Origin: an uncultured Gemmatimonadales bacterium
GTDB lineage: Bacteria > Gemmatimonadota > Gemmatimonadetes > Longimicrobiales > RSA9
Direction: 5' to 3'
Assembly: GCA_963798085.1 (NCBI GenBank)
Contig: CAWCRS010000007.1
Coordinates: 1,056,001 to 1,120,000, forward strand
DNA: 64,000 bases
Shown: one piece after another, positions 44,301 to 47,300 of the stretch
Layout of the letters: each line of letters opens with the position of its first letter
Position numbering within the stretch: the first letter of the stretch is position 1
Made by a program: the position numbers

Positions 44301-47300
44301 GTCCGGGGAAGCGCACGCCGCGCGCGTCCACGCCGAAGCGCACGAAGTAGTAGTCGCAGAGCAGCTCGCCCGCGACCTTGGTCACGCCGTACATGGTGCG
44401 CGGCCGCTGCACGGTGTCCTGCGGCGCCGGATCGCGTGGTGTGCCCGGGCCGAACGCTGCGATCGAGCTGGGCGCGAACAGCGCGCAGCCCGCCTCGCGC
44501 GCGACTTCCAGCACGTTGAACAGCGAGCCCATGTTCAGCGTGTACGCGCGTTGTGGATCTTCCTCGCCGCGCGCCGAGAGCAGTGCCGCGAGGTGGAAGA
44601 TGGCATCAGCCTGGTGTTCCTTGACGGCGCGCGCCACCGCGTGCGGGTCCATGCAGTCGAGCCGTGTCCACGGACCGGCTTCGCGCAGGTCCGCGGATGG
44701 CTCACGGACGTCGCTCGCGAGTACGGCCGCATCACCGTAGACACCACGCAGTGCCGGGACCAGCTCGGTGCCTACCTGGCCACCCGCCCCCGTCACCAGG
44801 ATCCGTTTCATGTTTGCTCCGCTGAATTGCCGGCCGCGCGGCCATGCAGGACGGCGGTAGCATACGCGCGCACCGGGCCAAAGCAAGTGCGCACGGCTGG
44901 CCATCGAGGGCTGTCGCAAGCGACAATGCGCGTTAGGTTGTGGCCGGCTTTCGATCCGCGTCTCCGCTTGGGATGACTGGAATGACTGAGGAAACACAGG
45001 AACACGCGGGACCCACCTTACCCGAACTGGTTGCCCGGCTGTTGCGCGGCGAGCATCTCGGCATCGCCGACGCCGAGAGCGCGTTTCGCACGATCATGGA
45101 GGGCCGGGCCACGCCGGTGCAAACCGCCGCGTTCCTCATCGCGCTGCGCGCCAAGCGTGAGCACCCGGTGGAAGTGGCAGGCGGCGTGCGCGCATTGCGC
45201 GCCGCGATGGTGCCGGTAGCTGCGAGCGAGCCGGGCACGCTGGTCGATACCTGCGGCACGGGTGGTGGTGCGGTCACCACCTTCAACATCTCGACTGCTG
45301 CCGCACTGCTGGCCGCAGGCGCGGGCGTGCGCATCGCCAAGCACGGCAACCGCTCGTTCACATCGCGCTGCGGGAGCGCGGACGTGCTCGCTGAGCTGGG
45401 TGTCGCGATCGAGCTGACGCCGGCAGCCATGGGCCAGGTGCTGGAAGAGGCGGGCATTGTGTTCATGTTCGCGCCGCTGCTGCACCCGGCGATGAAGCAT
45501 GTGGCGCCGGTACGCCGTGAGCTGGGCGTGCCCACGATCATGAACATCCTGGGCCCGCTCACAAACCCCGCGGGTGCGCGGCGTCAGGTGGTGGGCGTGG
45601 CCGATCCCGCACTCGTCGAGCTGATCGCGGGCGCACTGCACGAGCTGGGACACCAACAGGCGCTCGTCGTGCACGGCGATCCCGGGCTCGATGAGCTGAG
45701 CCCGATCGGCGAGACCAGCGTGATCGAGCTGAAGCGCGGCCAGCTGAGCCGCTATCGGCTGTCCCCCGCGAGCCTGCTCGGTGATGCCGCGCTGGATGCT
45801 GCCGACCTGGCGGGTGGCTCGCCGGAACACAATGCGGCCGTCATCACGGGCGTGCTGGAGGGCCGCCTGCAGGGCGCAGCTCGCGCTGCGGTGGTGCTCA
45901 ATGCCGGCGCCGCCATCTATGTCGGCGGGCTGGCCGATGATCTCAGAGAGGGAGTCCGTCTCGCGGAATGCGCCCTGGACGAGGGTCACGGCCTGGCCGC
46001 GCTGCAGCGGCTGCGCAGCGCCAGCAGCGCGGCCCGCGAATGAACCGGCGCGCCGGGCGCGGCACCGCCGCGCCCAAACCGCGTGTTAGTGCGGTGCGAC
46101 GCGGCGGCGCGGGCTCCTCAGTTCGCTGAAACTACAGCCCGCAGGGTCCAGGGCCCGAGGATAGGACCTCCTTCCACCCGCAGCACCAGAAGCGTTGTGC
46201 TGCGTCGGTCTGTCCGCCCCACCACAAATGCTTTCCGCCGCCCCATCAGTACCTCCGGATGACCCCAACCACGATGCCCTGAACCCGAATATCCTGTGAC
46301 CGGAAAAACATTGCCGGCATGCGCTCGTTCGCCGGCTGGAGCCGGACCCGGCCGTCCGACTCGCGATAGAACTTCTTCACGGTGGCCGCCTCGCCCTGCA
46401 CCAACGCGACCACCATGTCGCCGTTCTGGGCGGTGGGCTGCGCGTTCACGATCACGTAGTCGCCATCACGAATCTGCTCGTCGATCATGGAGTTGCCCTT
46501 CACGCGCAGCACGTAATGCTGGCCGCCGCGGCGCAGCAGTGTCTCGGGCACAGCGATCGACTCGCGATCCTCGATTGCCTCAATGGGCACACCCGCCGCG
46601 ACCGTGCCCAGCAGCGGCAGCTCCAGCGCACTCGTATTGCTGCCCCCATCCATCAGCTCGATGGATCGGCTCGCGTTGTAGCTCTTCCGGATGTATCCCT
46701 TGAGCCGCAGATTCTCGAGATGCTCATGCACCGTGGCCAGCGATGTGTAGCCGAAGTGCTGCGCGATCTCCTCGAAGCTCGGCGGGTACCCGTTGTCTTC
46801 GAGGAACCGCTCGAGGAAATCGAGAATCTCCTTCTGTCGCTTGGTCAGAGGCATCGTGACCTCGGATGCGGTGCGTGGGCTCCCCGGCTGGTCGGTGGCC
46901 TACCGAAGAGGAACCGAAAGCAACTTACCCGAAAGTGAACCGAAGCGCAAGAGGCGCGGCCGGATTCCTGGATCGGATCCTGGTGGCGAAGCAGGAAGAG
47001 GTGGCGGGCCTGCGGAGTCGGCGGGCGGAGCTGCGCCGGCAGGCTGAGCGTGCGTCGCCCGCGCGCCCCTTCGGTGCGGCGCTCCAGCAGCTGGCGGAGG
47101 TCACTGTGATCGCGGAGTACAAGCGTCGCTCACCCTCTGCCGGCGCCCTGGGCAAGGGCGACCCGGCAGAGGTCGCGCGCGCCTATGCCGCCGGGGGCGC
47201 ACGTGCCGTCAGCGTGCTGACCGATGGTCCGTTCTTCGGCGGGTCGCTGGCCGACCTGGCCGCTGTGCGCGCCTCCGTGGAGTTGCCCGTTCTGCGCAAG

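Follow-up and report, generated by a model that had tools for sequence, protein, structure and literature searches.

Which DNA sequence does the SOS repressor LexA recognise in the class Gemmatimonadetes? The question is raised by a lexA gene in a 64,000-nucleotide stretch (the window; positions 1,056,001 to 1,120,000 of contig CAWCRS010000007.1, assembly GCA_963798085.1) from an uncultured Gemmatimonadales bacterium. The first-pass annotation had claimed that LexA of this class binds a direct repeat, TTCGG-N6-TTCGG, lying twice over the lexA promoter and once before other SOS genes. Our analysis supports this claim through the conservation of the repeat at lexA, recA, imuA-imuB and dnaE2: it is very probably an SOS operator, and the LexA encoded at 46246-46854 is predicted to bind it. 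Unprefixed positions count along the window, and those with a contig prefix along the whole contig.

The lexA locus carries two copies of the repeat

44940-46043, plus strand: trpD (TIGR01245 above cut-off), convergent with lexA
46246-46854, minus strand: lexA, 202 aa (TIGR00498 above cut-off, 212 bits versus 111; Pfam PF01726 and PF00717)
46860-46863, minus strand: probable ribosome-binding site of lexA, GAGG, judged from sequence
46903-46918, minus strand: candidate operator box 2, TTCGG-TTCCTC-TTCGG, exact, just downstream of the putative -10 hexamer and over the predicted transcription start
46922-46927, minus strand: putative -10 hexamer, TAAGTT, after a 17 bp spacer; many relatives have TATACT/TATAAT-like sequences
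46929-46944, minus strand: candidate operator box 1, TTCGG-TTCACT-TTCGG, exact, taking up 16 of the 17 bp of the putative -35/-10 spacer
46935-48431, plus strand: trpC (NF001377 above cut-off), divergent from lexA
46945-46950, minus strand: putative sigma-70 -35 hexamer, TTGCGC, conserved in position

Both copies claimed for the lexA promoter are thus present and exact, 64 and 90 bp upstream of the gene. A consensus promoter and terminator scan made no call at lexA, the -35 being too weak for it, and the two hexamers were therefore assigned from conservation.

The product of the gene combines the LexA-specific domain pair, which genome-wide was found in this product alone, with an intact cleavage bond (Ala87-Gly88) and intact catalytic residues (Ser122/Lys160, numbered along the translation). 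Its recognition helix is SLATVHEHL, in which Glu44 corresponds to Glu45 of E. coli LexA in a gap-free helix alignment, and its nearest named relatives are labelled Longimicrobiales and Gemmatimonadaceae.

The lexA gene lies antisense inside a trp cluster (44940-48431). This arrangement, with trpD and trpC on either side, was seen in 25 of the 30 close relatives and in 71 of the 80 named loci. Here trpC shares one open frame with a trpF-like part behind it, the latter recognised by sequence inspection. The likely GTG start of trpC (46935) would fall between the two half-sites of box 1. Either antisense transcription or LexA bound there might therefore influence read-through from trpD to trpC.

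The repeat is conserved at lexA throughout the class

Among distinct class lexA loci of published genomes with at least 150 bp of upstream DNA, all 150 carry at least one exact TTCGG-N6-TTCGG and 141 carry two; duplicates and four loci grouped with unpublished genomes were removed from this count. An exact box was present at all 30 close-relative loci, ours among them, in 6/6 further members of the order, in 23/23, 20/20 and 7/7 loci of other families of the class, and in all 76 named GTDB loci with at least 150 bp upstream, the other four of 80 being too short or cut. When gapped 4-mer pairs were counted without a preset motif in the lexA upstream regions, our own locus and one near-duplicate being left out, pieces of TTCGG-N6-TTCGG ranked highest, in 27 of the 28 relatives.

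At class lexA loci, half-sites occur 314 times at a spacer of 6 and 0 to 9 times at other spacers up to 8; counts at spacers of 9 to 12 stem from the gap separating the two boxes. Inverted layouts occur 0 to 8 times. Two half-sites at a fixed spacer match the dimer-type architecture expected of a LexA operator. The register of box 1 is likewise constant. Of 149 distinct class loci, 140 have TTG starting 6 bp ahead of the box and 139 have TA 1 bp past it, and box 1 therefore fills the putative 17-bp -35/-10 spacer. Box 1 and box 2 are mostly 24-28 bp apart.

Palindromic LexA boxes are ruled out as the class motif: upstream of lexA in 165 class loci, the E. coli box CTG-N10-CAG was found in five, and neither the Gram-positive GAAC-N4-GTTC nor TGTTC-N4-GAACA, the LexA box of Verrucomicrobia, was found in any. 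Table 1 of PMC9578287 gives CGAAC-N4-GTTCG as the Firmicute and actinobacterial palindrome. The class half-site, which reads CCGAA on the other strand, contains its CGAA, but the class box runs head-to-tail and specifies one extra outer base.

Direct-repeat LexA boxes are established in Alphaproteobacteria, where PMC8565304, PMC3323433 and PMC9578287 give GTTC-N7-GTTC, and LexA might bind at our loci with that alphaproteobacterial or acidobacterial motif in a GC-rich guise. Both repeats have a period of 11 and a TTC core, and the box of Caulobacter and Rhodobacter also controls lexA, recA and imuA-imuB-dnaE2. The LexA box of Acidobacterium capsulatum is reportedly of the GTTC-N7-GTTC type as well (Mazon 2006). 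In the class box, however, it is the trailing GG that is nearly invariant and not the leading G. G precedes TTC in 33 of the 319 first half-sites and in 135 of the 319 second ones, and exact GTTC-N7-GTTC occurs upstream of lexA at 20 of the 165 class loci. We consider this explanation unlikely and keep TTCGG-N6-TTCGG as the motif.

Placement and conservation, not number, exceed chance

An enrichment of the bare pattern is rejected, as its counts are ordinary in both the window (three matches with at most one mismatch, against 4.2 expected) and the 6.2 Mb genome (ten exact copies, similar to other non-codon-periodic spacers). It is the placement and conservation of TTCGG-N6-TTCGG that go beyond chance. 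A scoring matrix was built from 52 lexA sites of relatives, our own lexA sites being left out. Its six best matches in the genome lie at recA (26.7 bits), lexA (26.1 and 24.9), dnaE2 (23.9), the gene for a UvrC-N-like nuclease (20.7) and imuA (20.3), and every match of at least 20 bits (6/6) precedes an SOS-type gene. Three Markov-simulated genomes gave 0, 1 and 2 matches at that level. At 15 bits or more, the simulated genomes gave 26-33 matches versus 20 in the real genome, and sites below about 20 bits are therefore meaningless alone. Of the seven top-ranking sites listed by the first-pass annotation, the one at ku scores 14.8, which is within the chance range. It had been put forward as a weaker site; with 2/28 loci carrying it, ku is rejected as a regulon member.

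Tests on orthologues used a threshold of 15 bits (14 for ku) and counted our own locus, and coding-region controls yielded 0 sites in each matrix test. Four unpublished genomes (G015, G016, G020 and G173) supplied 6 of the 52 training sites. They also account for 3/30 recA, 4/22 imuA, 2/28 dnaE2, 2/28 UvrC-like, 1/20 gyrA, 3/28 ku and 1/18 unknown-gene loci, and for 3/30 of the close-relative lexA loci; they are absent from the 150/141 count. None of the conclusions depends on them.

The repeat precedes recA, imuA-imuB and dnaE2

C7:1201934-1201949: exact box before the UvrC-N-like gene (GIY-YIG/UVR)
C7:1216888-1216903: exact box before recA
C7:1888025-1888040: exact box before dnaE2, which passes cut-off NF004225
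C3:530957-530972: exact box, in opposite orientation, before a gyrA/parC-type gene

The sites claimed earlier at recA, dnaE2 and the UvrC-N-like gene are exact, and that at imuA is one mismatch off. At recA, the box was found in 27 of 35 class loci (22/30 by matrix and 5/5 in other families by direct pattern) and is missing from eight. The site is thus conserved, but not in nearly all loci as the earlier figure of 13/14 had implied. The gapped word also leads the de novo count in 20 of 29 recA upstream regions. Our own locus aside, the box stands in one orientation at eight recA loci and in the other at 13, which is operator-like and is something that a promoter element could not do.

This last result bears on whether the repeat instead serves an alternative sigma factor as a promoter element, or owes its conservation to its overlap with the trpC start. 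Either would agree with the fixed register of box 1 to TTG and TA, and with the divergent trpC overlapping or abutting box 1 in most class loci. The orientation at recA varies, however, and separate -35/-10-like hexamers flank box 1, with box 2 lying beyond the -10. The box is also kept where trpC is not adjacent, as well as at imuA, recA and dnaE2. Because of the recA orientation and these other promoters the explanation fails, and we give it hardly any credence beside that of a LexA operator.

After a duplicate and a locus cut at its 5' end had been set aside, the imuA box was present in all 22 distinct loci, with 0 sites in the coding controls. For dnaE2, 17 of 28 loci have the box (two cut loci dropped); of the 11 without it, seven follow an imuA-like gene that has the box and is encoded on the same strand. 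The imuA and imuB calls, formerly made by sequence inspection, have gained some profile support (ImuA NF033429, E 2e-5; Pol IV models, E 5e-5), although both matches are below cut-off; the names are weakly held and draw on these matches, gene order and the box. Together these data support lexA, recA, imuA-imuB and dnaE2 as the core regulon of the class. An abundant but barely cultured class thereby gains a usable SOS box and core regulon, and damage-induced mutagenesis can therefore be mapped in any of its genomes.

Outside this core the box is patchy. The UvrC-N-like nuclease gene has it in 6/28 loci. The gyrA site, previously described as weak, is better than weak: the box precedes the gyrA-type paralogue of this assembly in 9/18 orthologues, as against 1/20 for the other paralogue (most relatives have two gyrA-like genes and this assembly has one). 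An unknown gene with a site (C2:159092 / C2:159118) has the box in 3/18 orthologues, and its membership is unproven.

A second, weaker site (C7:1888363-1888378; 17.2 bits) precedes the dnaE2 box by about 340 bp, and dnaE2 has two or three sites in several relatives. In this genome, genes for an aldehyde dehydrogenase and an outer-membrane protein separate imuB from dnaE2. The imuB gene (C7:1891630-1893031) is split across two frames here, while a single frame holds both halves at the 19 loci of relatives for which matches to the two were obtained; the split is probably an assembly indel. One further exact box (C3:934173-934188; low matrix score, 15.8) precedes an apparently broken ORF adjoining restriction-like genes and an S24-peptidase fragment.

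A model for repression by LexA

Drawing on knowledge of the LexA family for the regulatory steps, we propose that each winged-helix domain of a LexA dimer would sit on one of the two CCGAA half-sites (the opposite-strand reading), which are a helical turn apart and so present the same side of the DNA. Since the boxes at lexA cover the putative -35/-10 spacer (box 1) and the predicted start site (box 2), bound LexA would block sigma-70 RNA polymerase and repress its own gene. A single box would similarly repress each of recA, imuA-imuB and dnaE2 and, patchily, the UvrC-N-like nuclease and one gyrA/parC-type gene. The box would lie inside the promoter at imuA and dnaE2, and in either orientation at recA. 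Upon DNA damage, RecA filaments would be expected to stimulate LexA self-cleavage at Ala87-Gly88 by Ser122/Lys160, and the genes would be induced.

The fifth base of the half-site follows the LexA residue matching E. coli Glu45

The first-pass annotation had found no box in other classes of the phylum. TTCGG is indeed absent from 12/12 of their lexA loci, but in 11/12 a TTCGC-N6-TTCGC form (one with a TTCGT half) occupies the same promoter slot; the twelfth locus has only 182 bp upstream. These promoters typically read TTGACT-17-TATAAT. At the helix-3 position of E. coli Glu45, Lys is found in 12/12 of the other-class LexAs and Glu in all class LexAs. With a Glu-type LexA, the fifth bases of the two half-sites read GG in 152 of 154 anchored boxes (161 class loci) and in 5/5 outside the class.

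A protein-driven scan of metagenomes extended the comparison. Its matches are mostly Lys-type LexAs, most with the helix SLATVHKHL, one residue off SLATVHEHL, and the nearest Atlas cluster is commonest in Acidobacteriota, which serves as a lead only. Of 71 Lys-type loci with enough upstream DNA, 63 have a promoter-anchored box of the TTCGC..TT(C/T)GC type and none has G as the fifth base; most of the remaining eight show the repeat by eye and fail the strict flank pattern. Three distinct low-GC loci (L378, L382, and L242 = L294) have TTCGG-N6-TTCGG in the same slot together with the helix ALSTVHEHI or similar. Named relatives of the L378 LexA are from Magasanikbacteria (78%) and Falkowbacteria (70%), and we call the three loci Patescibacteria-like on the basis of the named homologues of this one locus and an Atlas lead.

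In E. coli, Glu45 recognises the leading base pair of the half-site, with C on that strand, which fits the pairs CCGAA/Glu and GCGAA/Lys. Glu45 touches the DNA (PMC3091678), and the E45K protein has lost specific binding to the recA box (bioRxiv 2020.07.14.201889, citing Thliveris and Mount 1992). A literature search on the specificity of LexA E45K found no paper. From these comparisons, the residue at E. coli position 45 probably recognises the outermost base pair in either half-site, Glu going with CCGAA (TTCGG) and Lys with GCGAA (TTCGC). Glu does not strictly demand G, because Glu-type genomes have eight recA boxes that begin with TTCGC and four that begin with TTCGT. We read these twelve as deliberately weak operators.

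In the Lys-type classes, a TTCGC box was convincing upstream of recA in 0/10 loci, and a promoter-anchored pattern in five genomes recovered little beyond lexA. A box at lexA without one at recA suggests a much reduced regulon in these classes. On viral contigs the promoter-anchored pattern matched 79 loci, two of them with lexA (duplicates) and none with genes matched by recA, dnaE2, imuA, imuB or UvrC-like queries; these matches are mostly chance, since almost none adjoin SOS genes.

Trees of 59 and 40 hand-picked LexA rows gave three to four changes of the Glu/Lys label on the best topologies. Strong branches force one change, with one independent pair, and a single-clade origin of the label stays statistically acceptable (p-AU 0.26). 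Phylogenetic proof that Glu/G and Lys/C co-evolved was thus not obtained.

Comparison with LexA boxes of other phyla

Direct-repeat LexA motifs have evolved repeatedly, and PMC7739468 cites papers on Verrucomicrobia, Patescibacteria and Acidobacterium in this connection. It also reports the direct repeat TTACACATATTTTWTACATA of Balneolaeota, found by comparison and confirmed by EMSA. That repeat was recognised by the same comparative logic and has a regulon around lexA, recA and translesion polymerases, as here, but its sequence is unrelated. Table S2 in the supplement of PMC8565304 includes, among LexAs with known sites, Parcubacteria and Microgenomates proteins from the Patescibacteria study; term searches of this supplement and one part of it gave no "Gemmat" entry. 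Passages of PMC3919608 mention Gemmatimonadota in a polymerase table only. In the literature searched, to which subscription papers and motif databases did not belong, no Gemmatimonadota LexA box was found. The box is therefore new for the class within that literature, and its direct-repeat kind was already known.

The earlier description of the repeat as undescribed holds for this phylum in the literature searched, but an identical repeat lies on the Patescibacteria-like lexA promoters. There it has the same -35/-10 slot, and LexA has Glu at the same helix position. The two LexAs are from different phyla and about 45% identical, with the helices ALSTVHEHI versus SLATVHEHL. A direct-repeat LexA box of Patescibacteria was reportedly defined by experiment (Sanchez-Osuna, Barbe and Erill, 2017). 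Because the Patescibacteria-like loci carry our repeat, the class box may be identical with that 2017 motif.

This suggests that LexA boxes reported separately, phylum by phylum, belong to one family. We lean, with some reserve, towards a single LexA family shared by Gemmatimonadota, Patescibacteria, and several Acidobacteriota-like and unnamed lineages, which would read a head-to-tail TTCG(G/C)-N6-TTCG(G/C) box in the -35/-10 spacer, with Glu or Lys in helix 3 setting G or C: a natural one-residue specificity switch across phyla. The choice between a final G and a final C in the repeated word appears to depend on one LexA amino acid, here and in other little-studied bacteria. This switch is the part of most interest to specialists and, if true, lets an SOS box be predicted from the LexA protein sequence. 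The Glu/Lys-G/C pairing also offers a two-protein, two-probe experiment on how LexA sites change and on the way in which a direct repeat is recognised by a symmetric dimer.

Other LexA-like and WYL proteins

A different regulator could in principle bind the box, either the second LexA-like protein of the class (helix STKTVSEHL) or a PafB/PafC-like WYL pair that would activate transcription after damage. Many relatives do have a second LexA-like gene, this genome encodes a fusion of a LexA DNA-binding domain to a deaminase as well as two neighbouring WYL/WCX proteins, of which one has a PafC-type HTH, and the place of the box inside the lexA and imuA promoters is fixed, as that of an activator site might be. 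Yet the base switch follows the helix of the primary LexA, and an upstream box was found at 0/16 second-LexA genes, which rules these out as autoregulated binders, and at neither WYL gene; the second LexA-like protein of this genome is the deaminase fusion and has no peptidase domain. The either-way orientation at recA and the copy downstream of the -10 fit poorly with an activator replacing the -35. The mycobacterial PafBC/P1 consensus, as given in PMC5656591 (tTGTCRgtg-8nt-TannnT), differs from the box, and a loose version of it gave eight matches, 0 of them at the SOS promoters scored. We regard binding by another regulator as very unlikely, and the primary LexA remains our candidate.

The adjacent WYL/WCX genes (C7:760439-762728; the second has the PafC-type HTH, and no box lies upstream) are possibly a LexA-independent damage pathway. 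The fusion gene (C7:1436756-1437484) joins the LexA DNA-binding domain to a TadA-like deaminase (PF01726 with PF00383/PF14437), and a genome of the same genus, G001, encodes such a fusion too (L603:794-1753, minus strand; by sequence inspection). In other relatives the second LexA-like gene is full-length, and in several it stands just after a tRNA-like sequence.
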